Notes: generated by a model from the letters alone, not told the origin. A stretch of 64,000 nucleotides of DNA from Patescibacteria group bacterium (GCA_041671125.1 JBAZCA010000001.1:136120-200119), one strand, 5' to 3'; numbered from the stretch's first letter, positions 4,949 to 54,421 are shown. Program-made: numbers and translations.

Positions 4949-6340
4949 ATGACCACCCCCAGCCTGACCGAAAAAATGCCGCCGCAGAATGTTGAAGCCG
5001 AAGAATCGCTTTTAGGCTGCCTTTTAATTGACAAAGATGCGATTATCCGGATCGCGGATATTGTTTTTGAAAAGGATTTCTATAAGGAAAGCCATGAGCT
5101 TATCTACCGGGCCATGAAAGAGCTCTATACCCGGCGCGAACCGATTGACATCCTGAGCCTTACAAACCGACTGGAGGAAAGAAACGAGCTTAGCCAGGTC
5201 GGCGGCCGGACTTACCTCGCCCATCTTTCCACCGCCGTCGCCACCTCTTCGCATATTGTCCATTACGCGCAGATCGTCCATAGAAAATCAACGCTAAGGC
5301 GGCTTATTGAAACCGCCGCCCAAATCGGCGAGATGGGTTACCGCGAAGACGAAGATTTAGAAAAAATTCTTGACGAAGCCGAGCAGAAAATTTTCGCGGT
5401 TTCCCAAAAATACGTAAAAAATATTTTTGTCCCGATTGACAGCCTCTTAACCGAGGCTTTTGACCGGATTGACGAACTCCATAAGCAGTCGGGAAAACTC
5501 CGGGGCATCCCGACCGGCTATTACGAACTGGACGACATGCTCGCCGGACTGCAGAAATCCGATCTGGTGATTTTAGCCGCCCGGCCGAGCGTCGGAAAAA
5601 CTTCCCTCGCCCTGGATATCGCCCGCCAGTCGGCGGTAAAATCCAAAGCTTCAGTCGGGCTTTTTTCCCTTGAAATGTCAAAAGAACAACTCGTTGACCG
5701 CATGCTCTGCGCCCAGGCCGGCGTCAGCCTCTGGAAAATGAGGACCGGAAAATTATCCGACCGCGAAGAAGACAATGATTTCGCCCGCATCGGCGAAGCT
5801 ATGGGTCGGCTTTCCGAAGCGCCGATTTACATTGACGACAGCGCCAATACCTCGGTCATGGAAATAAGAACTAAGGCCCGGCGCCTGCAGATGGAACGGG
5901 GCCTGGACATGATTATTATTGACTATCTCCAGCTCATGGAAGGCCGGGGAAAATACTCCGACAACCGGACCCAGGAAGTCTCCGAAATCACCCGAGGTTT
6001 AAAAGGCATTGCCCGCGAACTCGGCATCCCGGTCGTCGCCCTTTCCCAGCTCTCGCGCGTCGTTGAGCAGTCAAAGCCGGCCATCCCAAAACTCTCGCAC
6101 CTCCGCGAATCCGGTTCCATTGAGCAGGACGCCGACATTGTCATGTTCATTTACCGCAAAGCTTCAGACCGGAATTACCGCTTAGAAGACCTCTCAGACG
6201 AAGACCGCTATAAGGCCGAAATCCATATCGCTAAGCACAGAAACGGCCCGACCGGCCGGGTGGATTTATATTTTGACGAGCAGACCACGAGTTTTAAAAA
6301 TCTAGACTCAAAATCAAAAACCGACCTCCCGCAATTCTAA
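4949..6340 (+). CDS. dnaB: Replicative DNA helicase DnaB
   Basis: N-terminal PPQNVEAEESLLGCLL motif, Walker A ARPSVGKTS, and the IIIDYLQLM and RNGPTG motifs. Confidence 0.95.
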   Translation: MTTPSLTEKMPPQNVEAEESLLGCLLIDKDAIIRIADIVFEKDFYKESHELIYRAMKELYTRREPIDILSLTNRLEERNELSQVGGRTYLAHLSTAVATSSHIVHYAQIVHRKSTLRRLIETAAQIGEMGYREDEDLEKILDEAEQKIFAVSQKYVKNIFVPIDSLLTEAFDRIDELHKQSGKLRGIPTGYYELDDMLAGLQKSDLVILAARPSVGKTSLALDIARQSAVKSKASVGLFSLEMSKEQLVDRMLCAQAGVSLWKMRTGKLSDREEDNDFARIGEAMGRLSEAPIYIDDSANTSVMEIRTKARRLQMERGLDMIIIDYLQLMEGRGKYSDNRTQEVSEITRGLKGIARELGIPVVALSQLSRVVEQSKPAIPKLSHLRESGSIEQDADIVMFIYRKASDRNYRLEDLSDEDRYKAEIHIAKHRNGPTGRVDLYFDEQTTSFKNLDSKSKTDLPQF

Positions 6341-6365
6341 TAATTATTCATCTATAATATACTAA

Positions 6366-6515
6366 AAGCGAACGGATATTTTCATTTTTGAAGCGAGGAC
6401 ATGTACGCCGCTGAACATGCGTTGATTCCTGGCAAAGGACGTTTAAAAATATAATGCGTCCATGAGAAGAATGCGTGCGTTTCCACAGCGAAAAAATGAA
6501 AATATCCGTTCGCTT
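6366..6515. repeat. Family A hairpin element, copy 2
   Basis: The arms aagcgaacggatattttcattttt and aaaaatgaaaatatccgttcgctt are reverse complements. Same sub-terminal motifs as 960-1120, with a different centre. Confidence 0.7.
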
Positions 6516-6524
6516 AATCGCAAC

Positions 6525-6797
6525 ATGTTCAACAAACTAAAACAGCTGAAAGACTTAAGAAGTCAGGCCAAAAACATCCAGAACGTCCTCGCCGAAGAAA
6601 CCATTGAAGCGGAAAAAGGCGGCGTAAAAATCATCATGAACGGCAACATGGAAGTGAAATCTCTTACCATTAACAACGACATCGCTAAAGAGAGCCTGGA
6701 AGGAATCTTAAAAAACCTCATTAACGACGCCATAAAAAAGACCCAAAAAGTCATGGCCAAAAAAATGCAGGACATGGGCGGACTGCCGGGATTTTAA
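6525..6797 (+). CDS. ybaB: YbaB/EbfC nucleoid-associated protein
   Basis: MFNKLKQLKDLRSQAKNIQ...GGVKIIMNGNMEVKSLTIN is typical of the YbaB family, and it sits upstream of recR as usual. The ORF-track start at 6462 lies inside the family A repeat. Confidence 0.85.
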   Translation: MFNKLKQLKDLRSQAKNIQNVLAEETIEAEKGGVKIIMNGNMEVKSLTINNDIAKESLEGILKNLINDAIKKTQKVMAKKMQDMGGLPGF

Positions 6798-6850
6798 AAC
6801 GTAACACATAACATAAAACAGACTCTGTTACGTGTTCCATGTTATGAGTT

Positions 6851-7453
6851 ATGAAATATCCCAAAAGCATTGAAAACCTGATTAAATTTTTTTCCACCCT
6901 GCCAACCGTCGGACCGAAGACGGCCGAGCGGTATGTTTTTTATTTGCTCAGCCGGCCGGCCGAAGAATTAAAAAATTTCGGGGAGGCCGTCGCCAGCCTT
7001 AAAAACGGCGTTACTACCTGCCCGAGCTGCCTGACCGTTATTGAAAATGGCGGCTGTCCGATCTGCGCGGACGTTAAGCGCGACGCCAGGGAGCTTTGCA
7101 TCGTCGCTGATCCAAGAGATCTCACGGCCATAGAAAGCACAAAAAACTACAAGGGCTATTACCTGGTTTTGGGCGGGGAAATAAACGCCATTGAAGGCAT
7201 TGAACCGGACAGCCTGAATATTAAGGAACTGCTTAACAAACTAAAATCCGGGCCGGTCAAAGAGGCGATTCTCGGCCTCAACCCGACTCTTGAAGGCGAA
7301 ACTACGGCCATGTATTTATCCAGGCTGATTAAAAAAACTTTTCCGGACATAAAGGTTACCCGCCTCGCGCGCGGATTGCCGATGGGCGCGGACATTCTTT
7401 ACGCCGACGAGATGACTTTATCCAACTCATTAAAATACAGGAGCGAAATCTAG
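6851..7453 (+). CDS. recR: Recombination protein RecR
   Basis: LPTVGPKTAERY helix-hairpin-helix, C4 zinc finger (CPSC...CPIC) and a Toprim domain. Confidence 0.95.
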   Translation: MKYPKSIENLIKFFSTLPTVGPKTAERYVFYLLSRPAEELKNFGEAVASLKNGVTTCPSCLTVIENGGCPICADVKRDARELCIVADPRDLTAIESTKNYKGYYLVLGGEINAIEGIEPDSLNIKELLNKLKSGPVKEAILGLNPTLEGETTAMYLSRLIKKTFPDIKVTRLARGLPMGADILYADEMTLSNSLKYRSEI

Positions 7454-11491: not shown

Positions 11492-11528
11492 AACGGTTTA
11501 TGCTATTAGTAAATGATTTCTATAAAGA

Positions 11529-11715
11529 GATGCGAGCATTGAAAAATTTTGGAAAAATCATGAGCGTGGAAAGCGTGTAAAATTCCACTGTTTGAGCGAA
11601 CCCGCCGAATCGGCGGGGAGCGAGTTTGGAATTTTACTAGCTTTCATAGCGAATGATCCAAAATTTTTCCTGCTCGCGATTTTTGCGCCACTTTTTCTAA
11701 AAAAGTGGCAAAAAT
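11529..11715 (+). repeat. Family B structured element (about 185 bp), copy 1
   Basis: gatgcgagcattgaaaaatttt...cccgccgaatcggcgggg...aaaatttttcctgctcgc...gccactttttctaaaaaagtggc. Nested inverted repeats plus a 3' hairpin. Lies between serC and serA. Confidence 0.8.
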
Positions 11716-11736
11716 ATTTAAATACAAAATACATTA

Positions 11737-12678: not shown

Positions 12679-12722
12679 AAATTTTATGTTCGCTAATTAA
12701 TAAATGTTAAGTTTAAATTACG

Positions 12723-13054
12723 TTGTCATCTCAACCTTAGCGCAACAGAGAGTCATATTTCTTCTGTCATCCTGAGCGTAGCGAAGGATCTGCGGATGCG
12801 TTTCATATATTCACTTTTTATAACGCGCCACCGATTCTTTCTCATACTCTTCAACCTCTTTTTTATTTATCCCGTAATCCTTAAATAACCCCTCGCTTAA
12901 ATCCAGTAAATTTAAAAATGACTGCGGCAAACGACAACCATCTTTATTTAAACCCTTAGATACTTATTTACGTTCGCAGATCCTTCGTCCCGAATATTCG
13001 GGACTCAGGATGACAAAATAAAAAAGGATTTCTCTCTCGCGCTTAGAATGACAG
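12723..13054. repeat. Family C palindromic repeats (tgtcatcctgagcg...ggatgaca), composite copy
   Basis: Left arm tgtcatcctgagcgtagcgaaggatctgcg (12765-12794). Right arm cgcagatccttcg...actcaggatgaca (12974-13014). About 180 bp lies between the arms, with additional half-sites at both ends. Confidence 0.75.
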
Positions 13055-13171
13055 AAAAAGAGGATAATAAAAGACAGCCAAATTTGGAAACCGGGAGCGT
13101 TTCCATTGGTCAGAGGTAGTACAATTCACTCTGCCAATACTAGTAAGGAAACACTCCCGGAACGACGAGGA

Positions 13172-13285
13172 CTAGTCGTCTGGACATTCGTCCTCGTCAT
13201 CAGGGGGATCGTCAATAATATCCCCCTCATACTCATAACGACCCTCTTCCAGAGAGTCGCCTCTGTCATCTAGCCCGTAGCCCAT
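13172..13285 (-). CDS. Candidate 37-aa highly acidic small protein
   Basis: Own translation: MGYGLDDRGDSLEEGRYEYEGDIIDDPPDDEDECPDD. Preceded by GGAGAGGAGGTG and 7 nt, then ATG. Too short for the ORF track. Confidence 0.35.
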   Translation of the reverse strand: MGYGLDDRGDSLEEGRYEYEGDIIDDPPDDEDECPDD

Positions 13286-13422
13286 AATATCACCTCCTCT
13301 CCGCCGGAGCTACACGGCAAAAAATAAAACGAACACGAAACCAGGAACTAAACCATGATTCATATTTACTTCCCGCTTTCCTATCCACTGAACCTTTTTA
13401 AAGAACAAAATTATTAAAAATG

Positions 13423-13607
13423 GATGCGAGCATTGAAAAATTTCGGGCGTATCACGAGCGTAGAAAGTGTGCAAAATTCCACTGTTTGAGGACCCGCCGA
13501 ATCGGCGGGGACGAGTTTGGAATTTTGCTAGCTTTCATAGTGAGTGATCCGAAATTTTTCAATGCTCGCGATTTTTGCGCCACTTTTTCTAAAAAAGTGG
13601 CAAAAAT
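13423..13607 (+). repeat. Family B structured element, copy 2
   Basis: Near-identical by eye to 40121-40304. The listed ORF 13420..13713 is a translation of this repeat. Confidence 0.8.
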
Positions 13608-13630
13608 TTTAACGCAACCTTATACATCTT

Positions 13631-14524
13631 TCAACCAAATAGCGTCGTACTTAAATATTTTTCCCCTCTATCCGGAAAGATCGTTACTATGTTTCCTTTA
13701 TCAATCTTTTTAGCGATTTTTAAGGCCGCGAGCAGGGCGGCGCCGGACGACATGCCGACAAAAATTCCCTCTTCGCTAATAATCCGCCGGGACATGGCAA
13801 AGGCTTCTTCGGTGTCAATCATAATAACGTCATCCAGTTTTTCGCGATTATAAATTTCTGGGATAATCGCTTCTTCCATGTTTTTTAAACCCTGAATATA
13901 ATGGCCGCGCACCGGTTCAGCCGAGACTATTTTCACCGCCGGATTTTTCTTTTTTAAATACGCTCCGATGCCCATGAGCGTTCCCGAAGTGCCAAGGGCG
14001 GCGGTAAAATAATCAACCTTGCCATTAAGGTCGCGCCAGATTTCCCGGGCGGTAGTTTCGTAATGGGCGATCTTATTATACTCATTGGAAAACTGGTTCG
14101 GGTTAAAATACTTTTCCGGATTTTCCGCTAATAGCTCCCGGACTTTCATTATAGCCCCGTCCGTGCCTTTTGTCTTCTCCGTCAAAGTAACTTTGGCGCC
14201 AAAGGCCTTAATCATTTTAATCCGTTCAGGCGAGACCGCCGCGCTCATCACTATTTCCACGCCGTAGCCGCGCGCCGCGCCGATCATGGCGAGGGCGATT
14301 CCGGTATTGCCGGACGTCGCTTCAATAATGGTTTTACCTTTGGTTAATTTTCCCTCCTTTACGCCCTGCTCCACCATTTTCAGGGCAATCCGGTCTTTTA
14401 TGCTTCCACCCGGATTAACGCCTTCAATTTTCGCGTAAATATTCACGCCCTTTTTCGTATTCAGCTTGTTGATCTTTACCATCGGCGTCCGGCCGATTGT
14501 TTCCAGTATATTATTATAAATCAT
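13631..14524 (-). CDS. cysK: Cysteine synthase (O-acetylserine sulfhydrylase)
   Basis: IGRTPMVKINKL...NPGGSIKDRIA carries the PLP-lysine motif, plus the SGNTG loop. Confidence 0.85.
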   Translation of the reverse strand: MIYNNILETIGRTPMVKINKLNTKKGVNIYAKIEGVNPGGSIKDRIALKMVEQGVKEGKLTKGKTIIEATSGNTGIALAMIGAARGYGVEIVMSAAVSPERIKMIKAFGAKVTLTEKTKGTDGAIMKVRELLAENPEKYFNPNQFSNEYNKIAHYETTAREIWRDLNGKVDYFTAALGTSGTLMGIGAYLKKKNPAVKIVSAEPVRGHYIQGLKNMEEAIIPEIYNREKLDDVIMIDTEEAFAMSRRIISEEGIFVGMSSGAALLAALKIAKKIDKGNIVTIFPDRGEKYLSTTLFG

Positions 14525-14535
14525 ATAAATAAAAT

Positions 14536-14557
14536 CCGTCCCTTTTGAGGACGGTTT
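14536..14557 (-). terminator. Attenuator terminator 11 nt upstream of cysK ATG
   Basis: Minus strand reads CCGUCCU-CAAAA-GGGACGG followed by AUUUUAUUUAU, then ATG. Its 5' half AAACCGUCCUC can instead pair with GAGGAUGGUUU (14621-14631). Confidence 0.65.
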
Positions 14558-14600
14558 CTTTTTTACAGTCTGCTATTCATGGGATTTTTGACTTTCAGGC

Positions 14601-14699
14601 TTAGACTTTTGACTCGTGGGAAACCATCCTCAAAACCGGCTTGCTACCCGAGCCGCCGCACCCGCCTGAAAGAGACATTTTGAAGATGGATATGTTCAT
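14601..14699 (-). CDS. Candidate leader peptide, Ser/Gly/Cys-rich (32 aa)
   Basis: MNISIFKMSLSGGCGGSGSKPVLRMVSHESKV, verified codon by codon. The ATG lies 6 nt after the -10 box, so it looks leaderless. Confidence 0.55.
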   Translation of the reverse strand: MNISIFKMSLSGGCGGSGSKPVLRMVSHESKV

Positions 14700-14705
14700 A
14701 GTTAT

Positions 14706-14734
14706 ATGCTAAATAATTTTCGCCCGAGTGTCAA
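14706..14734 (-). promoter_or_regulatory. Sigma70-like promoter of the cysK leader
   Basis: Minus strand reads TTGACA (14729-14734), 17 nt spacer, TAGCAT (14706-14711), 6 nt, ATG. Confidence 0.6.
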
Positions 14735-14789
14735 TAGCGCCGAGCGTGTGAGCGAGGCGTCCCGCAGCCGTCAGGCGTGCGGGGCTGTC

Positions 14790-15410
14790 TTAAATAAGTG
14801 ATCCGAGTAAATCATCAACCGTATAACTCTTATCCATCTGCTCGTAATAATCAATCGTCGTATCCGCCAGTTTTTCGTAAAGCCCGGTCCGATAAGCTAA
14901 AAGCGCCGGATAGCATCTTTTTAGAGCCGCGACCTCTTTCTCGCCGGCCAAAGGCTTATACGCTTCACCCCAGATTATCGGCTTCGGGTTGTCAAAATAC
15001 TGTTTAATTTTTTTCTCAATTACTTCTTTCGGCGTATTAAAATAAACTACTTTGGTCAGTTTTTTCATTCTTAGGAGTAGTTCGCCGGACAGGTAAATAA
15101 CGCTCCCGGTCGTGTCAATAACAATATTTTCGCTTATTCCATTTTCCGCGGCATCCAGCGCTTCTTTTAGGTTTTTAGCTTCAAGTTCCAGATATTTCCC
15201 GCTGTTTTCCGGGCATCTCTCGTCATAAGGCTGTCCGAGCCAGCGGCTCATGTCTTTAATTCCCGAATATCCGAGTTCTTCCAGTTCCGGGCCGAGCGCT
15301 TTCTCAATCATGTCGTCAATGCCAAACCTTTTAAAGCCTTTTTCTTTTTTAAGCTTCTCCGACCAGTAAGATTTCCCTACTCCGGCCATGCCGATTAAAG
15401 AGATAAACAT
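14790..15410 (-). CDS. P-loop kinase, shikimate-kinase-like fold; function uncertain
   Basis: Walker A GMAGVGKS. DTTGSVIY aligns with the STGGGVI of shikimate kinases. It lies immediately downstream of thrC, and a separate aroK exists at 28534. Confidence 0.55.
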   Translation of the reverse strand: MFISLIGMAGVGKSYWSEKLKKEKGFKRFGIDDMIEKALGPELEELGYSGIKDMSRWLGQPYDERCPENSGKYLELEAKNLKEALDAAENGISENIVIDTTGSVIYLSGELLLRMKKLTKVVYFNTPKEVIEKKIKQYFDNPKPIIWGEAYKPLAGEKEVAALKRCYPALLAYRTGLYEKLADTTIDYYEQMDKSYTVDDLLGSLI

Positions 15411-15422
15411 AATTTTATGTAA

Positions 15423-16781
15423 TTACAAATTCCCAAGCGCTTTTTTCAACTCCTCATAATTATTTTTAATACTGATTTTCCGCTTCTCTTTCTGCTTTAG
15501 CTTTTTTATTTCTTCCGAATCATCAACGTAAATCCCGGTGTTTTCCTTAATCACGTCAGCGAACTTTAAAGGCGAGGCTGTGGAAAAAACAACTTTAGTA
15601 AGTCCGTTCTCGCCTTCCTTTTCCGCTCCGGCGAACGCCACGGCCGTGTGGGGATCAAGGAGATAATTATATTTTTCATAAACTTTTTTTATGGTTTCGG
15701 CCGTTTCCTTGTCATCCACTCTTTCCGCTTTTATCACTTTGCGGAATTCATCCGGGTTATCATGGAAAACTTTTTGGATGCGGATGAAGTTGCTCGGGTT
15801 GCCGATGTCCATGGCGTTAGAAAGGGTCGCCACCGTCGCCCGCGGCTTAAACTCTCCGGTTTCGTAATATTTTTTCGCCGCGTCATTGGCGTTGGTAACC
15901 GCTAAAAACCGGCTAAAAGGAAATCCCATTTCCCGGGCAAAAACTCCGGCGCAAAGGTTGCCGTAGTTGCCGCAAGGCACGACAAATTCCACCCCCTCTT
16001 GGTCTCCCCCTTTTAAAGGGGGAGATATTTTTTGTCCCGCCCGTTTCCTCCCTCTTTCTAAGGGGGAGGTTAGGAGGGGGTAGAGTTGCGAATAAACATA
16101 AGCGTAATAAACCATCTGCGGCAATAGCCGGCCGACGCTTATGGAATTAGCGGCCGTAAGGTTTAACGCGGCTAAATCCGGGTCATTAAACGCCTGCTTG
16201 GCGAACGCCTGGCAATCGTCAAAAACGCCTTCAACTTCAATAGTCGCAACATTCGGCTCCACCCTGGTCAACTGCTCTTCCTGCAGTTTGGAAACCATGC
16301 CCTTAGGATAAAGGATTACTACTTTCACGTTCGGAACCCCGCCAAGGCCGTGCGCCACGGCGCCGCCGGTATCACCGGAAGTGGCAACGAGAATCGTCGC
16401 GGTTTTTTTCTCTTTTTCAAGGATCCGGCTCATGAACCGCGCGAGAACCCGCGCCGCCACGTCTTTAAACGCGAGCGTCGGGCCATGAAACAATTCAAGA
16501 ACATAATAATCCCCGATCTTTATTAAAGGCAGGGGAAAATTTAAAGCCTCTTCCATCATCACCCGAAGTTCTCCCTCGCTAAAATCGTCGCCTACCCATT
16601 TTAAAAGCGTTTGCGTTGCGACCTCAGTCAAATCCTTTCCTTTTAAATTTTCCAGTTCTTCTTCGGAAAATTTCGGAAAAAATTCGGGAAAATAAAGCCC
16701 GCCGTCCGGCGCGAGGCTCTTTAACATGGCTTCTTTAAAATTAACGGCCGGTGATTTACCGTTTAAGCTAAAAAATTTCAT
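15423..16781 (-). CDS. thrC: Threonine synthase (long type) carrying an in-frame family D repeat insertion
   Basis: The N-terminus GGLYFPEFFP, HGPTLAFKD (PLP lysine) and SGDTGGA are ThrC motifs. The segment LLTSPLERGRKRAGQKISPPLKGGDQEG is encoded by the repeat at 15989-16084. Confidence 0.9.
   Translation of the reverse strand: MKFFSLNGKSPAVNFKEAMLKSLAPDGGLYFPEFFPKFSEEELENLKGKDLTEVATQTLLKWVGDDFSEGELRVMMEEALNFPLPLIKIGDYYVLELFHGPTLAFKDVAARVLARFMSRILEKEKKTATILVATSGDTGGAVAHGLGGVPNVKVVILYPKGMVSKLQEEQLTRVEPNVATIEVEGVFDDCQAFAKQAFNDPDLAALNLTAANSISVGRLLPQMVYYAYVYSQLYPLLTSPLERGRKRAGQKISPPLKGGDQEGVEFVVPCGNYGNLCAGVFAREMGFPFSRFLAVTNANDAAKKYYETGEFKPRATVATLSNAMDIGNPSNFIRIQKVFHDNPDEFRKVIKAERVDDKETAETIKKVYEKYNYLLDPHTAVAFAGAEKEGENGLTKVVFSTASPLKFADVIKENTGIYVDDSEEIKKLKQKEKRKISIKNNYEELKKALGNL
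15989..16084. repeat. Family D palindromic element inside the thrC coding sequence
   Basis: ccaccccctcttggtctcccccttttaaaggggga...tcctccctctttctaagggggaggttaggagggggtag. The reading frame is maintained. Confidence 0.8.
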
Positions 16782-16822
16782 TATTTTTAAGATGCGGTTT
16801 TAGACTGTAGAATAATCATTTT

Positions 16823-16923
16823 TGTCATCTCGACGACCGAAGGGAGGAGAGATCTAATTGCTATGAATGCTTTTTCACGGAGATTAGATTTCTCGCCCTC
16901 CTTGCGTCGGGCTCGAAATGACA
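16823..16923. repeat. Family C palindromic repeat
   Basis: tgtcatctcgacgaccgaagggaggagagatctaa...ttagatttctcgccctccttgcgtcgggctcgaaatgaca. Confidence 0.75.
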
Positions 16924-16974
16924 AAAGAGGGGTTTTTGTTGCGTTCTTCTATAGTCTAAATTTAGATAAAAAAA

Positions 16975-17391
16975 TTAACAGCTTCTTTCATCCTTCTTCA
17001 GCTTGTAATTAAAACTCTCAACAAGCGCTATCCAGCTCGCTTCTATAATATTCAATGACACGCCGATAGTCCCCCAGCGATCTTTGCCGTCGCTTGATTC
17101 AATAAAGACCCGGACTTTGGCCGCGGTCCCGTCTTTGGACGGCAGTACCCGGACTTTGTAATCAGTGAGCTTCATTTTTTTCAGCCGCGGATAGACTTTT
17201 TCAAGGGATTTCCTAAGCGCGTTGTTTAGAGCGTCAACCGGCCCGACGCCAGACGCCGTATTCCGCTCTTTATTAGCGCCAACTTTAATCCCGACTTCAG
17301 CTTCGGCCGCCGGCTCCCCCCAGTCCCTTTCTTTCTGGACTATTACCCGATAGTCCATAAGTTCAAAGAATTTTTTCTCTTTGTGAGGCAT
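16975..17391 (-). CDS. Stand-alone LeuA-type allosteric (LeuA_dimer-like) domain protein
   Basis: SGVGPVDALNNALRKSL...AAKVRVFIESSDGKDRWGTIGVSLNIIEASWIALVESF. It shares the GVGPxDA motif and following strands with the LeuA C-terminus (52332..) and the C-terminus of the 46074..47936 product. Confidence 0.65.
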   Translation of the reverse strand: MPHKEKKFFELMDYRVIVQKERDWGEPAAEAEVGIKVGANKERNTASGVGPVDALNNALRKSLEKVYPRLKKMKLTDYKVRVLPSKDGTAAKVRVFIESSDGKDRWGTIGVSLNIIEASWIALVESFNYKLKKDERSC

Positions 17392-17605
17392 ATTGTTTAG
17401 AGTTATTGAGACGGTGGCAAAACTAATTTTACAACCATCTCAATTATCCCCTTATAATATCAATCTAGCACATACTCCTAAAAATTCAATCCTCAGCTAC
17501 TTATAAATGATTTTTTCGGCATGCTTCGTCATAAAAACGGGATTCATGGAATGAAGCCTGATTTTTGGGAGAGGAGAAAAGACATTTTCTTCCGTCTTTC
17601 CTCCC

Positions 17606-17785
17606 CTAACGAAGCCCCAAATCTCTTTTGCATAGCTTACAAAACGGGGGCCTCATCTGCGGGATCAGGTCGTGGCAATCTTTAAAGATTACCACCTTAA
17701 CCTCTCTCCCGCAGCCTTTTTTCCTGCAAGTAAAAACAGCTGTTTCTCTCTCCCTTGCAGGTTGGAGAGATTTTTTTTGATCCAT
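17606..17785 (-). CDS. Small zinc-ribbon-like protein (59 aa)
   Basis: MDQKKSLQ...FTCRKKGCGREV...PPFCKLCKRD has CxxxC...CxxC. Preceded by CCGGAAAGGAGG and 6 nt, then ATG. Confidence 0.4.
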   Translation of the reverse strand: MDQKKSLQPARERETAVFTCRKKGCGREVKVVIFKDCHDLIPQMRPPFCKLCKRDLGLR

Positions 17786-17926
17786 CAGGAGCCTCCTTTC
17801 CGGCGTCTCATTAACGCCAATTTTTTTATTCCTCCTCAACCCTTAACTCATTTTCCGGTCAGTTTCCGGATAAGGTAAAAGTTGAGGAGAAGAGCGAAGT
17901 CCTCCGTGTTTCGCTCTTCTCTTTTT

Positions 17927-18130
17927 TCACATTCCGCGCGGGATTGGTCCCGGTTGGGATACGATTTGATGACGTTCCTGCTCGAGGCAATACATCGAGC
18001 AGGCCATCTGTCCCAGTAAAGGGGCGAGGTCAAATATCTTAATTCCTCGCCCCTTCACCGGGAACAGTCCCCGGCATACTCTGCAGGGGCAGACAATAAT
18101 CCTGCCCCTGAAAAGTTCAAAACCCTTCAT
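17927..18130 (-). CDS. Small Cys-rich protein (67 aa)
   Basis: MKGFELFRGRIIVCPCRVCRG...ACSMYCLEQ. Preceded by CCAAGGAGGG and 4 nt, then ATG. A hairpin follows at 17885-17925. Confidence 0.4.
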   Translation of the reverse strand: MKGFELFRGRIIVCPCRVCRGLFPVKGRGIKIFDLAPLLGQMACSMYCLEQERHQIVSQPGPIPRGM

Positions 18131-18361
18131 AGTCCCTCCTTGGCGGCGCAAGAACTGCCGCCTCTTTAAAATGAAAAACAATAAATCGCCTCTACAACTC
18201 CAGCCTCTAACAAAAACATCCACGTTATAAATATCAGCGTTCTTTCCGCGTATTTATCCGCGTCAAATCCACATTATAAATAAAGGCCAAAGTAATATCT
18301 GCGATTGTTTTAAAAGAACGGCTATACTTAAATTTTTATGTTTCAGCTAATCAAAAGCATT

Positions 18362-18481
18362 TGTCATTCCCGCGGAGGCGGGAATCCAGGGTAAAAAGGA
18401 ACATCCGGCTAATTACCTTAATATTGTAATCAGCGGTATTACGTTTAACTCCTGGATTCCGGCTCGGAGGCCGGAATGACA
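18362..18481. repeat. Family C palindromic repeat (cattcc/ggaatg variant)
   Basis: tgtcattcccgcggaggcgggaatccaggg...cctggattccggctcggaggccggaatgaca. Confidence 0.75.
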
Positions 18482-18485
18482 TAAA

Positions 18486-18517
18486 GATAAAAAAATACCG
18501 CCCCAATTGCGGGCGGC
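18486..18517 (-). terminator. Attenuator terminator of the Thr/Ile/Met leader
   Basis: Minus strand reads CCGCCC-GCAAUUG-GGGCGG followed by UAUUUUUUUAU. Its 5' half lies within a 12 nt sequence that is perfectly complementary to 18575-18586. Confidence 0.65.
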
Positions 18518-18596
18518 TGGCTGATTATTCTTTGACTTTCTTACTTCTAACTTCTTACTTCTAACTTATTTTCGCCGCCCGCAATTAAAACCCCGG

Positions 18597-18656
18597 TCAT
18601 AATAATTCCGGTCATCATCATAATGGTCTTAATTGTGGTGGCGTTTATTCTCGTCA
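18597..18656 (-). CDS. Candidate leader peptide, Thr/Ile/Met-rich (19 aa)
   Basis: MTRINATTIKTIMMMTGII, verified codon by codon. Similar in style to E. coli ThrL ([21 protein letters not shown]). The ATG lies 6-7 nt after the -10 box. Confidence 0.6.
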
Positions 18657-18662
18657 TGTTTA

Positions 18663-18692
18663 TATTTAATCAAACACCAACGAAACTGTCAA
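18663..18692 (-). promoter_or_regulatory. Sigma70-like promoter of the Thr/Ile/Met leader
   Basis: Minus strand reads TTGACA (18687-18692), 18 nt spacer, TAAATA (18663-18668), 6 nt, ATG. Alternatively a 17 nt spacer, TTAAAT and 7 nt. Confidence 0.55.
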
Positions 18693-18721
18693 TAACATGC
18701 ACCTGACACGGCATCCAAAAT

Positions 18722-18794
18722 AAAAAAAAAGCCCTCCGCGCGAAGATTAAGGGATTTGTGGTTCTGCGAAATACACAGAACGCGCGCGAAGGGC
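18722..18794 (-). terminator. Long-stem terminator ending the GC-rich locus
   Basis: Minus strand GCCCUUCGCGCG ... CGCGCGGAGGGC forms a 12 bp stem enclosing a smaller hairpin, followed by U9. Confidence 0.6.
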
Positions 18795-18799
18795 CTGGT

Positions 18800-19060
18800 T
18801 TACCGGCGGTCAGGACACAAGGGTGCCCTTTCTTTCGTCGCCGGAGGGGGGGCGGTGAGGGGCGAGTTGCCCCTCAAAGTAGCCAACTCTTGTGGAGACC
18901 CTAACCAGGCCTCCATGCTAACACGAAAATCCGCTCCCACCGGCGGTTCCCCAACCGCCGAAATAATCCCGCGGTGCCTAAGGCATTCCGGTCTCTGGCA
19001 CCCGGGCCCGCATGTCAACGTCTCCTCCCCGGGGGTGGGCGGAGTCTTTTGTTCGGACAT
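18800..19060 (-). other. GC-rich locus: either an 86-aa ORF or a structured RNA (unresolved)
   Basis: GGCGGAAAGGAGG, 6 nt, then ATG, opening an ORF MSEQKTPPTPGEETLTCGPGCQRPECL... The region also contains many GC helices: ggcctggtt/aaccaggcc, gaggggc/gcccctc, cggcggtt/aaccgccg and ggtgcc/ggcacc. Confidence 0.35.
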
Positions 19061-19190
19061 TTCTGTCCTCCTTTCCGCCCGGCGATGCCGGGCTGCTGTT
19101 AATAACGATCAACACCTCTCTGATTTTCATTGTCTTTCGTGTTTAAATCAAAAACAGAAAGCTATTGACGATTTATTATTTTTTAATGAA

Positions 19191-19410
19191 CTTAGGACTT
19201 ACGCGTTTGGAAAATAAACTCATTTTGTCATTCCGGTCGGAGCGTAGCGGAGAGCCGGAATCCAGCCTGCCTGCCGGCAGGCAGGGATTTAAAGGTAATA
19301 ATGTGTATATTTTTAAGATGCAGTTAGAGCTTTTAACCCTGGATTCCGGATAGCCTTACGGCTTCCGGAATGACAAAAGGGGTATTTGCGCGCAAACGCG
19401 TAAGTCCTAG
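19191..19410. repeat. Nested composite palindrome (outer acgcgtaagtcc arms around a family C core)
   Basis: cttaggacttacgcg...tgtcattccgg...cctgcctgccggcaggcagg...ccggaatgaca...cgcgtaagtcctag. Confidence 0.75.
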
Positions 19411-19635
19411 AACTAATATCCCGCAAATAAGTAAATTCTCTTTATTCGCGTCATTAGCGCGCATTCGCGTATTAGCATTACGAAATATTTGTAAATTTGT
19501 AACAGATTTGCCTGCCTGCCGGCGAGGCAGGTTGATTTGTGGGTATAAAGAAAATCTTCCCGCGCGGAAATGGGAAGACGAGATGGAAAAGTGCAGGCAC
19601 AATCCATTCACGCGCGGGTTTTTGCCTTGCCAGGG

Positions 19636-19884
19636 CTACTTTTTAGCTTTTTCCTCCTTAATAATTCCGAGCTCTAAATGGCGAAGCCGGTACATCTCAT
19701 TTACCGGATTCGCTTTCTGCTCCCGGGCAGCCTTCGCCCGGTCGCAATCCCTCTCCGAGTGCGCCCTCTTGAAGCGACGCACATACTCTTCTTTTTCGGC
19801 CTTACTCAGCATATTACCGAATCGGCCGATTTCCAGCCCGCAACGCCGACAACAGACTGGAACAAAAAAACTTATTGAAACCAT
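19636..19884 (-). CDS. Small basic Cys-containing protein (82 aa)
   Basis: MVSISFFVPVCCRRCGLEIGRFGNMLSKAEKEEY... Preceded by CCAGAAGGAGGA and 4 nt, then ATG. Confidence 0.4.
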   Translation of the reverse strand: MVSISFFVPVCCRRCGLEIGRFGNMLSKAEKEEYVRRFKRAHSERDCDRAKAAREQKANPVNEMYRLRHLELGIIKEEKAKK

Positions 19885-20133
19885 CACTTCCTCCTTCTGG
19901 CGCCCCTCTCTTAATGTAGGGTCGCCTGTCAAATATTAAAACACGTCCTCTGCCAACTTTCTGCTTTCCATCCATAACTATCTATACCCTTATTAGATCC
20001 TTCAGCCTAATCGGCCTCAGGATGACAAAAAACAAAATAAAAAACAAAAGGCTGGCGAGGACTTGGCTTAATTTATAAAGAGCAAAATCTAATATTTGTA
20101 AATTTGTAACGGATTTGTTGATTCGTAGGTTAT

Positions 20134-20162
20134 AAAAAACCGTCCCCTTTTTCTTGAGACGG
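20134..20162 (-). terminator. Rho-independent terminator downstream of tyrA
   Basis: Minus strand reads CCGUCUC-AAGAAAAAG-GGGACGG followed by UUUUUU. Confidence 0.65.
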
Positions 20163-20185
20163 CTTTTGTTGTAATCTTGGATTAT

Positions 20186-20215
20186 ATTATAAACAAAAAC
20201 TCTAACTTTTGTCAA
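20186..20215 (-). promoter_or_regulatory. Consensus promoter located between the tyrA stop and its terminator
   Basis: Minus strand reads TTGACA (20210-20215), 18 nt spacer, TATAAT (20186-20191). Confidence 0.45.
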
Positions 20216-20241
20216 TAGCGCTATGTTTTAGGAAAAATTGA

Positions 20242-22334: not shown

Positions 22335-23126
22335 ATGGCTTCAAAAAAAGAACTCTTATCAAAAATTATCAATCCCGTTTCCGGACGGACGGTTATTGTT
22401 CCCATGGATCACGGCGTTACCGACGGACCGATTTCGGGCCTTGAAAAAATGGATGAAATCATCCGCAAAGTAAAAGAAGGCGGCGCCGACGCTATTATCA
22501 TCCACAAAGGCATTTTTAAATTATGCCGGGAAGCCATCGGCGATCTTCCGGTTCTAATCCATATCTCGGCTTCAACCGGCATGGGCGTTTCTTTAAAAAA
22601 AGTTTTAGTCGCTACAGCCCGCGAAGTTAAAAACCTCGGCGCGGCCGGAGTTTCTGTCCATTTGAATATCGGGAACGAATACGAACCGGAAATGCTCCGC
22701 GATCTCGGCATTATTTCCCGCGAATGCGAAGAGGAAGGATTGCCGCTTTTAGCCATGATGTATCCGCGCGGCATTATTGACGGCCGGATAGTCCATTACA
22801 ACGACCCCGCCCGGGTGGCGCACGCCGCCCGCCTCGCGGCCGAACTCGGAGCCGACATAGTTAAAGTCCCATACACCGGCGACGCGAAAAGTTTCGGCGA
22901 AGTGGTCAAAAGCTGTCCCGTACCGGTCGTTATCGCCGGCGGAGCCAAAGGCTCGGAAGAAGCCATGCTTTCTTCCATCCGGGATTGCGTCCGGGCCGGA
23001 GCGACCGGAGTTTCGGTCGGCCGGAACGTCTTCCAGTCCGAAGACGTCCCGGGTATGGTAAAAAAAGTCCGGGACACTGTCTATAACGCGACCCTTAATT
23101 TGTCATCTATACAGACTGTCCGATAA
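22335..23126 (+). CDS. 2-amino-3,7-dideoxy-D-threo-hept-6-ulosonate (ADH) synthase, class I aldolase family (archaeal AroA')
   Basis: DhnA/FbaB-type aldolase with IVPMDHG and the Schiff-base region ADIVKVPY. The adjacent DHQ synthase II supports the specific call. Confidence 0.8.
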   Translation: MASKKELLSKIINPVSGRTVIVPMDHGVTDGPISGLEKMDEIIRKVKEGGADAIIIHKGIFKLCREAIGDLPVLIHISASTGMGVSLKKVLVATAREVKNLGAAGVSVHLNIGNEYEPEMLRDLGIISRECEEEGLPLLAMMYPRGIIDGRIVHYNDPARVAHAARLAAELGADIVKVPYTGDAKSFGEVVKSCPVPVVIAGGAKGSEEAMLSSIRDCVRAGATGVSVGRNVFQSEDVPGMVKKVRDTVYNATLNLSSIQTVR

Positions 23127-23127
23127 T

Positions 23128-23335
23128 TGTCATTCCGACCCCGCCTTTTGCGGGGGAGGAATCCCTTAAAGGTGAAAGTGGCTAGTTTAAGGGATTTCTC
23201 CCCGCCGATTCGGCGGGTCGAAATGACAAAAAAAGGAGTTGTCGGGTAGCTTGGAGAGATATAATTGAGTTGAACATATTATAAAAAAAATCTCATACGT
23301 AGCGATTAGATCTCTCGCTACGCTCGAGATGACAA
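23128..23335. repeat. Family C palindromic repeats (one full copy plus a half copy)
   Basis: tgtcattccgaccccgccttttgcggggg...ccccgccgattcggcgggtcgaaatgaca, then ...gattagatctctcgctacgctcgagatgacaaaag. The half copy supplies the ATG at 23329. Confidence 0.75.
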
Positions 23336-24351
23336 AAGATATGCAAAAAATATTCTGGTACCAGCCCCCGGTCTGGGATAAAAAATTAGTTACCGCGGCC
23401 ATTGAATCGGGCTTTTCCGCGATCTACGTCCGGCCAGAAGACATCTTAAGGACAAAAGAACTTTCCCTGGCCAAAGTCGTTTCAACCGCCGCGCCGGCTG
23501 ATTTCATCATCGGCGAAAACGTTGACGAAGTGGAAATCAAAAACAAAGAGGCTGAAGAACTGGTCGTCCGGCACCAGGGAAGAATTCCGGTTATTATAAG
23601 GAACCTTGACTGGACAATAATCCCTTTGGAAAATCTTATTTCAAAAACAACAAACTTAATCCAGCATGTCCGCGGTTATGACGAGGCTAAGCTGGCCTTT
23701 GAAACTTTGGAAAGCGGCTGTGACGGGATATTACTGGAAAGCGGCGATTTGAATGAAATAAAAAAAACAGCCACCCTGATTAAAGACGCCCAAAACGAAA
23801 AACTGAAACTCGCCCACGCTGAAATATCTTCAGTAGAACAGCTCGGTCTAGGCGACCGGGTGGTTGTTGATACTTCCTCCATATTATTTCCCGGCCAGGG
23901 CATGCTCGTCGGAGACTCTTCCAAAAGTATGTTTTTAGTATATAATGAAAACGTGGAGACTCCTTACTGCGATCCGCGTCCCTTCCGGGTTAACGCCGGC
24001 GGCGCCCACGCCTACATCCGCCTGCCCGGCGACAAAACTAAATATCTCGGAGAACTAAAAAGCGGCATGAAAGCTTTGGCCGTTGATCCGGCCGGCAACA
24101 CCGAAGAAGCTATCATCGGCCGGATAAAAATAGAAAAGCGGCCAATGCTTATTGTTCGGGCCAAAGTCGGTGAGCGAGACATGAGCCTGGTCATGCAAAA
24201 CGCCGAAACCATCCGGCTTACCGGAACTGACGGACAGCCGATTTCAGTTACAAAATTAAAACCCGGCGACAAGGTGCTGGCTTTCCTGCAGGAAGAAGGG
24301 GTTGGGAGGCATTTCGGCCAGAAAATAAAAGAAACCATAACCGAAAAATAA
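23329..24351 (+). CDS. 3-dehydroquinate synthase II (archaeal type, AroB')
   Basis: About 340 aa. The N-terminus FWYQPPVWDKKLVTAAIESGFSAIYV is typical of the DHQS-II family as I recall it. The true start may be the ATG at 23341. Confidence 0.8.
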   Translation: MTKDMQKIFWYQPPVWDKKLVTAAIESGFSAIYVRPEDILRTKELSLAKVVSTAAPADFIIGENVDEVEIKNKEAEELVVRHQGRIPVIIRNLDWTIIPLENLISKTTNLIQHVRGYDEAKLAFETLESGCDGILLESGDLNEIKKTATLIKDAQNEKLKLAHAEISSVEQLGLGDRVVVDTSSILFPGQGMLVGDSSKSMFLVYNENVETPYCDPRPFRVNAGGAHAYIRLPGDKTKYLGELKSGMKALAVDPAGNTEEAIIGRIKIEKRPMLIVRAKVGERDMSLVMQNAETIRLTGTDGQPISVTKLKPGDKVLAFLQEEGVGRHFGQKIKETITEK

Positions 24352-28533: not shown

Positions 28534-29856
28534 ATGAATATAATCCTTATCGGTTTCATGGGTTCGGGAAAAACTACGCTAGCCAAAATACTCACAGACG
28601 CTTTGGGCTGGAAGGCAATTGAAATGGATGATTTGATTTTAAAAAAAAGCGGTCGAAGGACCATTGGTGAAATTTTTGAAAAAAACGGCGAATCGGTCTT
28701 TCGAAAATTGGAAGCGCAAATCGCCAGAGAATTATCCAATACTAATAATAAAATCATCTCTACCGGCGGGGGCGTTATCATGAACGCTAAAAATATCGCT
28801 AACCTGAAAAAAACCGGAAAAATTGTTTATTTAAAAGACAGCTTTGAAAATATCCGGGAAAGATTAAAAAAAGATAAAACCCGGCCGCTCTTTCAGGATT
28901 TAAAGAAAGCAAGAAAACTGTTTAAGCTTCGCCAGTCCTTATACGAGAAATACGCCGATGAAATTATTAATTGCGCGGCTAACCCGGACTTAAACCGCGT
29001 CAGCCGGGAAATTACTAAACGGCTGGAAAAAGACTTAAAAAAAATCTGCCTGATTATCGGCGATCCCGTAGCCCACAGCCTCTCGCCCGCCATGCATAAC
29101 GCCGGCTATCGGGCTTTAAAAATTGATAACCAATTTATTTTTCTTTCAGCCAAAGTTAAGCCGCGGGAATTAAAAAACAGCGTCCGGGCGGCGAGAACTT
29201 TAGGAATCCGCGGACTTACCTCTACCATGCCGCACAAACAAGCGATAATGAAATACCTTGACCGGATTGACCCAATCGCGAAAAAAATCGGCGCGGTTAA
29301 TACGGTGGTTAATGAGAGCGGCCGACTGACCGGCTATAATACTGACTGGCTGGGCGCCGTAATCCCTTTGGAAAATTCTGCCGGTAAAAATGGCTTAAAA
29401 AATAAAAGAGTGGCTCTACTCGGTTCGGGCGGCGCGGCCCGGGCGATTGCCTACGGGTTAGCGAAAAAAGGCGCCCGCTTAAAAATCTTTGACCGCGACA
29501 TTAATAACGCGCGAAAACTGGCTAAGGAATTCGGGGCAGAATCCGGCGGTTATTCGCAAATCCATGAAGTTAAAAGCTCTGACATCATTATCAACGCCAC
29601 GCCGATCGGCATGAAACCGCGTGAAAATGAATCACTGGTACCAGCGGAATTTTTACGTAAAGACCAGGTTGTTTTTGACGCCGTCTATTTTCCCCGAAAA
29701 ACCAAACTTTTAAAACAGGCGGAAAAAAAAGGCGCGAAAATTATTCCCGGCTTGGAAATGCTTTTATATCAGGGAGCGGCCCAGTTTGAATTATATACCG
29801 GCAGAAAAGCGCCGGTTGAAGCAATGAGAAAAGCCTTGAAAAGATGCGAGCATTGA
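28534..29856 (+). CDS. aroK-aroE: Shikimate kinase / shikimate 5-dehydrogenase fusion
   Basis: N-terminus has GFMGSGKTT and STGGGVI (shikimate kinase). C-terminus has GDPVAHSLSPAMHN, MPHK, NTDW and GSGGAARA (shikimate dehydrogenase). Start placed at MNIILIGF. The stop lies in family B repeat copy 3. Confidence 0.85.
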   Translation: MNIILIGFMGSGKTTLAKILTDALGWKAIEMDDLILKKSGRRTIGEIFEKNGESVFRKLEAQIARELSNTNNKIISTGGGVIMNAKNIANLKKTGKIVYLKDSFENIRERLKKDKTRPLFQDLKKARKLFKLRQSLYEKYADEIINCAANPDLNRVSREITKRLEKDLKKICLIIGDPVAHSLSPAMHNAGYRALKIDNQFIFLSAKVKPRELKNSVRAARTLGIRGLTSTMPHKQAIMKYLDRIDPIAKKIGAVNTVVNESGRLTGYNTDWLGAVIPLENSAGKNGLKNKRVALLGSGGAARAIAYGLAKKGARLKIFDRDINNARKLAKEFGAESGGYSQIHEVKSSDIIINATPIGMKPRENESLVPAEFLRKDQVVFDAVYFPRKTKLLKQAEKKGAKIIPGLEMLLYQGAAQFELYTGRKAPVEAMRKALKRCEH

Positions 29857-30038
29857 AAAATTTCGGATAAGACAAACGGACATTTTCCTCTACAAAATTT
29901 TTCTGTCCGAGCGAACCCGCCGAATCGGCGGGGAGCGAGTTAAAAATTTTGTTAGGAAAATAGAGGTTTGACCCGAAATTTTTCACCTGCTCGCGATTTT
30001 TACGCCACTTTTTCTAAAAAAGTGGCAAATAAAATACA
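29853..30038 (+). repeat. Family B structured element, copy 3 (variant inner stem)
   Basis: Same outer arms (gatgcgagcattgaaaaatttcgg / ccgaaatttttcacctgctcgc), same central cccgccgaatcggcgggg and same 3' hairpin. The inner arms differ from the other copies but remain mutually complementary. Confidence 0.8.
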
Positions 30039-30758: not shown

Positions 30759-30869
30759 TTATTCCTCTTTCTTTTTTCCCTTCACTATTTTATAAATGGC
30801 AACATGCTCATTTATGGCGAAGGCGACAAAAAGAAAGATCATCACCCACTTGACGATTTCAATCAACAA
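30759..30869 (-). CDS. Candidate 36-aa single-TM peptide antisense to the aro operon
   Basis: AGGAGGTG, 6 nt, then a TTG start: (M)LIEIVKWVMIFLFVAFAINEHVAIYKIVKGKKKEE. Followed by the hairpin ccggtaaggat/atccttaccgg (30709-30748). Confidence 0.3.
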   Translation of the reverse strand: MLIEIVKWVMIFLFVAFAINEHVAIYKIVKGKKKEE

Positions 30870-32330: not shown

Positions 32331-32630
32331 AATATCTACAAATCAACGAATTTACAACAAATCTACGAATATAGAACTTACGCGTTTATGCGTAAATACC
32401 CCCTTTGTCATTCCGGAAGCCGTTTGGCTATCCGGAATCCAGGATTAGAAGCTTTAACTAAATTTTCAGGATTAAAGGCATTATTACCTTTAAACCCTGG
32501 ATTCCGGCTCTCCGTCTCGATGATTCGGGACTCCGGCCGGAATGACAAAGTGAATTTGTTGGTTAAACGCACAAGTCTTGGAATAAATAAAATTTACATA
32601 TTTGTAAATTCGTCGTTGATTTGTGGGCGC
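32331..32630. repeat. Triple-nested palindromic composite between the T-box and trpE
   Basis: Outer arms caaatcaacgaatttacaa / ttgtaaattcgtcgttgatttg. Middle arms acttacgcgttt / aaacgcacaagt. Inner family C core tgtcattccgg...ccggaatgaca. Confidence 0.75.
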
Positions 32631-40081: not shown

Positions 40082-40120
40082 AAATTTGCATAATTACTAT
40101 TGGCTACAATTAAATAAAAT

Positions 40121-53942: not shown

Positions 53943-53954
53943 AATTTAGATATC

Positions 53955-54100: not shown

Positions 54101-54123
54101 TTTTTGATTTTTACATTTTACAT

Positions 54124-54154: not shown

Positions 54155-54179
54155 TTTCTTTCAATCTTCATCTAGTAAA

Positions 54180-54412: not shown

Positions 54413-54421
54413 ATTAACTCT

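Follow-up and report, generated by a model that had tools for sequence, protein, structure and literature searches.

A 64,000-nucleotide (nt) stretch from a Patescibacteria group bacterium (GCA_041671125.1 JBAZCA010000001.1:136120-200119; this whole stretch is called the window below) carries small open reading frames (sORFs) led by strong Shine-Dalgarno (SD) sites among core genes that show none, which raises the question of what these small genes are and why they should start in a manner of their own. Our analysis suggests that they are probably lineage-specific accessory small-protein genes with a separate start module, consisting of a hairpin and an extended SD, and that they are swapped as cassettes. 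A preliminary description of the window had listed seven such ORFs on the minus strand; all seven are present where it placed them, with (A)GGAGG 4-7 nt before the ATG, and the list fell short by one (s30). The eight sORFs are:

s13: 13172-13285, minus strand, acidic protein of 37 amino acids (aa; 17 D/E), SD GGAGAGGAGG at approximately 13300-13293.
s17: 17606-17785, minus strand, zinc-ribbon-like protein of 59 aa with CX4C...CX2C, SD GGAAAGGAGG, abutted by a GC hairpin at 17818-17802.
s18a: 17927-18130, minus strand, Cys-rich protein of 67 aa, hairpin at 18162-18142 and then AAGGAGGG.
s18b: 18800-19060, minus strand, ORF of 86 aa, hairpin at 19093-19077 and then GGAAAGGAGG.
s19: 19636-19884, minus strand, protein of 82 aa with an N-terminal CCxxC and three predicted helices, hairpin at 19926-19899 and then AGAAGGAGG.
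s30: 30759-30869, minus strand, hydrophobic peptide of 36 aa with a KKKEE tail, SD AAAGGAGGTGA, 6 nt and a TTG start.
s54: 54505-54837, minus strand, protein of 110 aa with three CxxC pairs, hairpin at 54879-54853 and then GGAAAGGAGG.
s55: 55216-55392, minus strand, acidic protein of 58 aa, SD CAAGGAGGG.

SD strength was taken as the best duplex of the 20 nt 5' of a start with the canonical anti-SD CACCUCCUUA, which may not be the host's own 16S tail, and the reference set consisted of 40 core genes with unambiguous ATG starts. The seven sORFs listed earlier gave duplex energies of -11.6 to -16.3 kcal/mol, compared to a mean of -0.7 kcal/mol for the core genes (strongest value -7.5 kcal/mol), and the two distributions do not overlap; with s30 included, an SD is present in 8/8 small accessory genes and 0/40 core genes. 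The serine recombinase and other genes of an integrated element in the window likewise lack an SD, as had been claimed for biosynthetic, housekeeping, recombinase and Rep-like genes. Over the 30 nt that precede the start, GC content is 0.28 in core genes compared to 0.59 in the sORFs, and the mean minimum free energy (MFE) over positions -30 to +30 is -12.9 kcal/mol for the sORFs compared to -6.3 kcal/mol for core genes (p = 0.001). The window holds 11 instances of GGAGG, 3-9 nt, ATG and an ORF of 37 aa or more, where a first-order Markov null (200 simulations) gives 1.6 +/- 1.3; seven of the 11 are the intergenic sORFs, which fall within 20% of the window sequence.

The window lies on ENA ERZ27249449 contig k141_224736, of which regions amounting to 87 kb were examined, and identical sORFs are present in independent assemblies (ENA, a JGI contig and an NCBI metagenome-assembled genome), which rules out assembly chimerism. 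Loci of sister genomes were reached via contigs that carry a relative of s54, a relative of s19 and an 81%-identical thrC, namely L083 (ENA ERZ27247094), L170 and L169 (JGI 3300037810) and the fragments L171 and L172. The L083 and L170/L169 loci are syntenic with the window and come from two sister genomes; the core-protein tree is (window,(L083,L170)), with ~88% identity between the window and either sister and ~94% between the two sisters. Outside this clade, the next thrC relatives are Parcubacteria-like (e.g. Tagabacteria at 58% identity). A thrC scan of genome contigs returned only relatives at no more than 44% identity, unsuitable for synteny, and a thrC-alignment scan of metagenome contigs gave, as the best among the matches listed, one at 49% identity, with patterns that were too generic. 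Synteny with the window is absent from the distant thrC relatives L165-L168, whose core genes also lack SDs. The split seen in the window recurs in these more distant Parcubacteria (L165, L166), as strong SDs precede two small membrane ORFs of L165.

Across the window and its relatives (19 SD-led sORFs in four loci), GGAGG occurs in 17/19 and the spacing from the SD core to the start is 4-9 nt in 19/19. A recurrent GAAAGGAGG(T) is complementary to a CCUCCUUUC-type 16S tail over 9-11 nt. In 12/19 a stable GC hairpin ends exactly at the start of the purine-rich SD, as in the hairpin/SD junction GGCGGCAGttctTGCGCCGCC/AAGGAGGG; the hairpins that abut the SD have free energies of -7 to -20 kcal/mol and z-scores of -1.9 to -4.2 relative to shuffled sequences, and between orthologues their stems are kept and their loops differ. 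The common context before the SD (CGCC/GCC) that had been noticed earlier is therefore real and is explained as the 3' arm of this abutting hairpin. A census of GC hairpins over the window was dominated by repeats and uninformative. Orthologues retain the SD core and the ATG even where spacers and ORFs change, which would argue for SD use by the host ribosomes. Core genes have AT-rich leaders, and two conserved small ORFs near the sORFs (a thr-type leader and a 42-aa ORF) are leaderless or nearly so.

Whether these ORFs are genes was judged from conservation and from the ratio of non-synonymous to synonymous substitution (dN/dS, Nei-Gojobori method). An exhaustive HMMER search returned one true match to s54 (P0131, the L169 orthologue; 74% identical, E = 1e-43), with a dN/dS of 0.35 and all eight Cys of the N-terminal domain kept, and a word-indexed search found an 86%-identical relative of s19 (P0135, in L170/L171/L172), for which comparison with the L170 orthologue gave a dN/dS of 0.16 (19.8 synonymous and 15.2 non-synonymous differences; dS 0.53). 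Two families known from the relatives behave similarly: the L083 ORF C62 and its L170 orthologue C63 have a dN/dS of 0.38, and L083 E70 and L170 E69 are 63% identical around a conserved core, CPxGDGGHLxxDTGRCIRCLN. The dS of sORF orthologues (0.5-0.76) lies within the range for core genes (dS 0.3-1.1; dN/dS 0.06-0.16). Periodicity of the form GC1>GC2<GC3 is seen in s13, s19, s54 and s55. Taken at the level of sequence comparison, most sORFs appear to encode proteins under purifying selection, so the lack of conservation that would have spoken against them as genes is not what the orthologues of s19, s54 and two sORFs of the relatives display. Not every nucleotide of these ORFs is equally credible as coding sequence. 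The 3' quarter of s54 is conserved as hairpins at the DNA level and is frameshifted in the orthologue, so this last quarter is probably not protein-coding in function. In s18b the 3' part overlaps conserved non-coding DNA and a 21-aa motif (EExLTCxxxCxxPxCxxxRGI) is common to an L170 ORF of 76 aa, itself without an SD; only the N-terminal Cys core of s18b is credibly coding.

The enrichment in Cys that had been remarked on stands out clearly (29/499 residues, 5.8%, compared to 1.2% in core proteins; p = 8e-12). Paired CxxC-type knuckle spacing is found in s17, s18a and s54 and in the L083 ORFs B81, D63 and E70, with matches to Pfam zinc fingers below threshold. A putative zinc-ribbon fold is read from this Cys spacing, and zinc binding is presumed.

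All of the sORFs except s30 lie in the three largest intergenic regions of the window (952, 2850 and 2096 bp), which hold repeats resembling miniature inverted-repeat transposable elements (MITEs), in keeping with the three repeat-rich islands described previously:

Island 1: 12679-13630, minus strand, between cysK and serA, with s13 and MITE copies.
Island 2: 17392-20241, minus strand, between tyrA and the ACT-thrC operon, with four variable sORF slots (A-D).
Island 3: 53943-56038, minus strand, between ndk and leuA, with s55, a palindromic repeat, s54 and the highly conserved 42-aa ORF.

Island 1 of L083 and L170 holds one or two further hairpin-SD sORFs, and island 2 consists of a conserved non-coding backbone with MITE insertions, the thr-type leader peptide and a short promoter-terminator unit. 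By contrast, s30 is a unit of its own (promoter TTGACA-17-TATGTT, SD and terminator), isolated between unrelated genes. The window as a whole holds unusually complete amino-acid biosynthesis operons (ser, thr, cys, aromatic, leu) and has long intergenic regions for a Patescibacterium. The islands had been called GC-richer, which holds for the sORFs themselves (GC 0.46-0.63) and for the islands (0.41, 0.45 and 0.44) relative to other intergenic DNA (0.378) but not relative to the window mean (0.449). In a self-BLAST of the window, none of the repeats overlapped an sORF or its SD, which disposes of the concern that the SDs are part of a repeat consensus and rules out MITE- or repeat-borne pseudo-SDs; the repeat CCTTAC.AAGGGGGAGG, which does contain GGAGG, is another element and is sited elsewhere.

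Comparison with the relatives shows that the contents of the islands turn over far faster than their surroundings. Between the window and L083 the non-coding backbone is 93-100% identical, compared to 77-85% at nucleotide level for core genes, and this backbone is broken by non-aligning segments, each of which holds an SD-led ORF in both. The slot partners of island 2 in these two loci share no protein similarity beyond the conserved flanking DNA:

Slot A: s19 in the window; in L083 an unrelated 108-aa ORF with breakpoints at the ATG and just before the stop; in L170 the s19 orthologue.
Slot B: s18b in the window; in L083 the unrelated, Cys-rich B81 (81 aa); in L170 B76 (76 aa), with the 21-aa Cys motif only and no SD.
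Slot C: s18a in the window; in L083 C62 (62 aa); in L170 C63 (63 aa), the orthologue of C62; s18a is unrelated to both.
Slot D: s17 in the window; in L083 a different Cys-rich ORF; empty in L170, with the precise junction gttgagg/attgaattt.

The slots contradict the core tree: slot A joins the window to L170, slot C pairs the sisters L083 and L170, and slot D has no content in L170. The backbone itself is a mosaic in which L083, around slot A and the thr leader, resembles the window more closely than it does its sister L170. With flanks diverged by just 0-7%, the non-aligning ORFs cannot be put down to in-situ divergence, and replacement of the slot contents by recombination is the economical reading. 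The word cassette that was used earlier is thus apt insofar as slot contents are swapped among close relatives between flanks of 93-100% identity. A pair of MNT (Polbeta nucleotidyltransferase) and HepT, a toxin-antitoxin system, sits at the start of island 2 in L083 only (6265-7088), which fits island 2 as a hot spot for accessory genes.

Searches for known families and vehicles were negative. The sORFs gave nothing above noise against Pfam, PHROG, PADLOC and NCBIfam, the s54 and s17 sequences gave only noise against solved PDB structures, and the sORF regions had no Rfam family match, permissive thresholds yielding hairpin-like noise only. Three scans of IMG/VR, and scans of INPHARED and PLSDB with 12 sORFs concatenated, returned no matches. 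No integrase or att site was found at the islands. Among the called genes of the contig regions examined there is no IntI, the only recombinase being the large serine recombinase at 58148-59827, and attC or GTTRRRY sequences are absent from the breakpoints read off the alignments, whose flanks are unique to each slot with no boundary repeat in common; an integron is thereby ruled out. Prophage or phage moron genes are rejected in view of the negative phage searches and of flanks that consist of biosynthetic operons, and type II toxin-antitoxin systems in view of the absence of Pfam, PADLOC and NCBIfam matches together with an acidic/Cys-rich adjacency that occurs once, with the partners ~380 bp apart.

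We favour, with some reserve, the reading in which the sORFs of this Patescibacteria (Parcubacteria-like) clade, most of them zinc-ribbon-like and Cys-rich, some acidic and one hydrophobic, would each form a separate mini-cistron, usually with a GC hairpin whose 3' arm runs up to an extended SD (RGRAAGGAGG) and with the ATG 4-9 nt further on. Core genes, by contrast, have no SD and start at 5' ends that are AT-rich, unstructured or leaderless. The sORF messages are GC-rich and structured, as the MFE values indicate, so the default, structure-free route of the host may be unusable for them and SD/anti-SD pairing may be what recruits 30S subunits to these short mRNAs, with the 5' hairpin insulating or stabilizing the message in the manner of Bacillus stabilizers. 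The genes have their set places in three expanded intergenic regions that precede amino-acid biosynthesis operons, and homologous recombination across the conserved backbone would swap, add and delete slot contents between related lineages. As to the role of the products, small nucleic-acid-binding or conflict-related factors are the most likely guess. Several observations weigh against this account. The hairpin is absent from 7/19 sORFs, and predicted accessibility of the SD is variable, with folding giving no consistent picture. The anti-SD motif is seen in only ~48% of Parcubacteria 16S sequences, and bS21 is often absent (PMC9297842, Tsurumaki et al.); with about half of these 16S sequences lacking an anti-SD and no rRNA gene in the window or the flanks examined, including the next 10 kb of the contig, SD use in this host is presumed. 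Conservation of s13 and s55 is poor: in L083 (13433-13603) s13 keeps the N-terminal 16 aa, SD and ATG with the remainder diverged, and the s55 orthologue at L169 221-391 has 36% aa identity and a conserved SD region. In s18b there is no codon-position GC periodicity, and a longer antisense ORF (153 aa) is present. The AlphaFold models are of low confidence (predicted local distance difference test, pLDDT, 32 for s54 and 57 for s19), which is why the fold has to be read from Cys spacing. The proposed recombination is read from flank homology, and the comparison draws on three related genomes.

Of the two interpretations offered in the preliminary description, a dedicated class of small SD-led proteins fits better than foreign cassettes, as purifying selection, conserved Cys and an SD-ATG arrangement kept across three genomes all speak for the former. 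Recent acquisition from a phage, a plasmid or an SD-using organism, with the donor SD and GC retained, would account for sORFs that are GC-richer than host genes and differ from them in their SD, for contents that turn over between close relatives, for the MNT/HepT pair inserted in the same island of L083, and for the failure to find sORF homologues outside the clade. We nevertheless consider it unlikely, since the virus and plasmid searches and PHROG gave nothing, the islands have no integrase or att site, the families are confined to the clade and slot-specific, with no second copy of any in ~150 kb of these genomes, and their orthologues are syntenic in three species with dS values of 0.5-0.76, near those of core genes (0.4-0.84). 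It is likewise unlikely that translation itself is what matters, with the sORFs serving in the long ser, thr/cys and leu leaders as upstream ORFs that regulate, or as spacers that load ribosomes, for example by blocking premature termination or sensing Cys. All precede amino-acid biosynthesis operons in the same orientation, a genuine thr-type leader peptide and attenuator lie in the same island, the Cys-rich s17 and s18a precede an operon with cysK, and ORF sequences turn over fast as the SD and ATG are kept; yet the amino-acid sequences of s19, s54, C62/C63 and E70/E69 are under purifying selection, the ORFs are long (37-110 aa) with no regulatory codon runs, most are followed by hairpins of their own, slot D is missing in L170 where the thr operon is intact, and s30 stands isolated between unrelated genes.

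Two further explanations concern the nature of the motif and of the products. The hairpin and purine tract might be an RNA or DNA element that serves processing, protein binding or recombination, with ORFs that are by-products of GC-rich sequence, a possibility that we rate as quite improbable. It draws on the missing periodicity and 153-aa antisense ORF of s18b, on the 3' part of s54 that is conserved as hairpins despite a frameshift, on a backbone better conserved than the ORFs and on the lack of an anti-SD in some Parcubacteria (PMC9297842), but it does not explain a spacing of 4-9 nt to the ATG in 19/19, a complementarity to the canonical 16S tail CCUCCUUUC over 9-11 nt, dN/dS values of 0.16-0.38 with the eight Cys of the s54 N-terminal domain conserved, or the codon periodicity of s13, s19, s54 and s55, and Rfam offers no family for such an element. 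It may hold for s18b, but not for s19, s54, C62 and E70. The pairing of a Cys-rich with an acidic partner as a toxin-antitoxin system, also raised in the preliminary description, is very unlikely. The acidic s55 does lie upstream of the Cys-rich s54, both are conserved in L169, and the size and hydrophobicity of s30 recall a type I toxin peptide. Against this, s55/s54 is the single such adjacency, a palindromic repeat lies within the ~380 bp between the two, and either gene is served by an SD module of its own; s13 stands without a partner, every sORF of island 2 is basic or Cys-rich, and PADLOC, Pfam and NCBIfam give no toxin-antitoxin match.

The closest parallel on record is the SD-blind Bacteroidia, in whose ribosomes bS21, bS18 and bS6 sequester the anti-SD, and in which a single strong-SD gene, rpsU, is translated by bS21-free ribosomes, as in the autoregulation of Flavobacterium johnsoniae (PMC9976891, PMC7797042, PMC13000453). 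Both cases combine core genes that have A/T-rich leaders and no SD with very few short genes that carry a strong extended SD, implying a separate translational regime. They differ in that the SD gene of Bacteroidia encodes a ribosomal protein and its mechanism has been demonstrated, whereas the genes described here are fast-evolving accessory sORFs. A bolder form of the argument, which we regard as doubtful, posits two initiation channels: core genes would be read in an SD-independent or leaderless fashion, and the swappable hairpin-SD mini-cistrons, with their fast-evolving zinc-ribbon or acidic micro-proteins, only with the 16S anti-SD available, making them a conditionally translated accessory regulon that lineages exchange by recombining over an ultra-conserved intergenic scaffold. 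Such a regulon would be a counterpart of the bS21-gated system of Flavobacteria, though independent of it.

Other known systems share parts of the arrangement. Integrons and clusters of attC sites lacking integron integrases (CALINs) also hold small co-oriented genes, mostly of unassigned function, with their own SDs and variable content, and the array of one relative here includes a toxin-antitoxin pair; in contrast to them, the islands have no IntI, attC or GTTRRRY, the flanks are slot-specific, and exchange looks homologous across a conserved backbone. In Bacillus, the aprE leader and the cryIIIA STAB-SD combine a 5' stem-loop with a strong SD that has been shown experimentally to block 5' decay. 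The stable hairpin directly 5' of an extended GAAAGGAGG-type SD is similar, with the differences that the present host otherwise makes no use of SDs and that a stabilizing role is presumed. Small zinc-finger or zinc-ribbon micro-proteins of archaea and bacteria resemble the sORFs in size (40-110 aa), paired CxxC-type knuckles, fast evolution outside the Cys residues and lack of Pfam matches, although the sORFs have no detectable homology to any described family and their fold is putative (pLDDT 32). Attenuators of the thrL type are, like the sORFs, sited in the leader regions of amino-acid operons, and a true leader (18547-18657) lies among them; the seven sORFs are however far longer (37-110 aa), have no codon runs, possess an SD and are dispensable in relatives. 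The features of a leader-attenuator are thus lacking in the seven and are found instead in the 36-aa ORF at 18547-18657 with its terminator at 18517-18497.

Patescibacteria (Candidate Phyla Radiation) make up a huge uncultured share of bacterial diversity and have reduced ribosomes, many of them reported to lack an anti-SD. The split of 0/40 and 8/8 within one genome therefore offers a testable case for SD pairing that survives as a special-purpose signal, and would be more puzzling still if the 16S of this clade lacks an anti-SD. A further implication is an overlooked layer of small proteins that purifying selection maintains and for which the searches run gave no relatives beyond the clade; their cassette-like exchange at fixed intergenic slots fits conflict or regulatory functions missed by standard annotation.

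Several neighbouring elements deserve mention. The thr-operon-type leader peptide MTRINATTIKTIMMMTGIIMTGVLIAGGENKLEVRS, rich in Thr, Ile and Met, lies at 18547-18657 (minus strand) in the window, 8431-8541 in L083 and 10722-10832 in L170. It precedes the ACT-thrC operon, seems to be leaderless (TTGACA-18-TAAATA-5 nt-ATG) and is nearly identical in L083 (dS 0). Pairing is possible between the 3' end of this ORF (TTGCGGGCGGC) and the 5' arm of the next terminator (18497-18517), and classical attenuation in a Patescibacterium would be notable if true. At 20215-20140 (minus strand), all that lies behind a perfect sigma-70 promoter (TTGACA-18-TATAAT, 12/12) is a unit of ~50 nt closed by a hairpin terminator, ATCCAAGATTACAACAAAAGCCGTCTCAAGAAAAAGGGGACGGTTTTTT; it is 100% identical in L083 (7143-7227), is conserved in L170 (9590-9670) and could be a small RNA or an attenuator. 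The 42-aa ORF of island 3 (MDKDNKKLEILNKFDEKNEIV...; 54284-54412, minus strand; L169 1217-1345) has its own TTGACA-17-TATAAT promoter and a near-leaderless start, and is 98% identical in L169; its dS of 0.04, compared to 0.43 for the adjacent leuA, suggests that the nucleotide sequence itself is constrained. In a segment that overlaps the stop and terminator of s54 (54440-54511, minus strand), a further hairpin CCCCGGGTATGTATACCGGGG is followed by AGAAAGGAGATAAT and an ATG, which opens a 23-codon ORF that runs through the terminator, in DNA ~95% conserved in L169.

MITE-like palindromic families of ~200 nt occur at 13409-13612, 40108-40304, 11521-11721 and 29843-30029, and a further match joins 19193-19409 and 32372-32577; these repeats sit just 3' of several biosynthetic genes, and for some of them the corresponding site in L083 and L170 has no copy. 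Within thrC (15423-16781), at ~15990-16085, an in-frame insertion of the palindromic repeat CCTTAC.AAGGGGGAGG.TAGGAGGGGGT adds 25 aa (SPLERGRKRAGQKISPPLKGGDQEGV) that are absent from the L083 and L170 thrC, with other copies of this repeat at 1755-1848, 49382-49410, 50368-50440 and 50833-50860, including copies at leu gene junctions. The aromatic amino-acid route at 22335-24351 (plus strand) is of archaeal type, with a DeoC-like ADH synthase and dehydroquinate synthase II (PF01959). A LOOT RNA (Rfam RF03000, 79.5 bits) lies at 62870-62997 (minus strand) in the integrated-element region near the serine recombinase. Beyond window coordinate 64000, the next contig segment (L173 1-10000) encodes a giant Laminin_G-like protein of 2975 aa and a pair resembling a cyclic oligonucleotide-based antiphage signalling system (CBASS; SMODS cyclase and S_4TM effector) beside metallo-beta-lactamase-fold genes.

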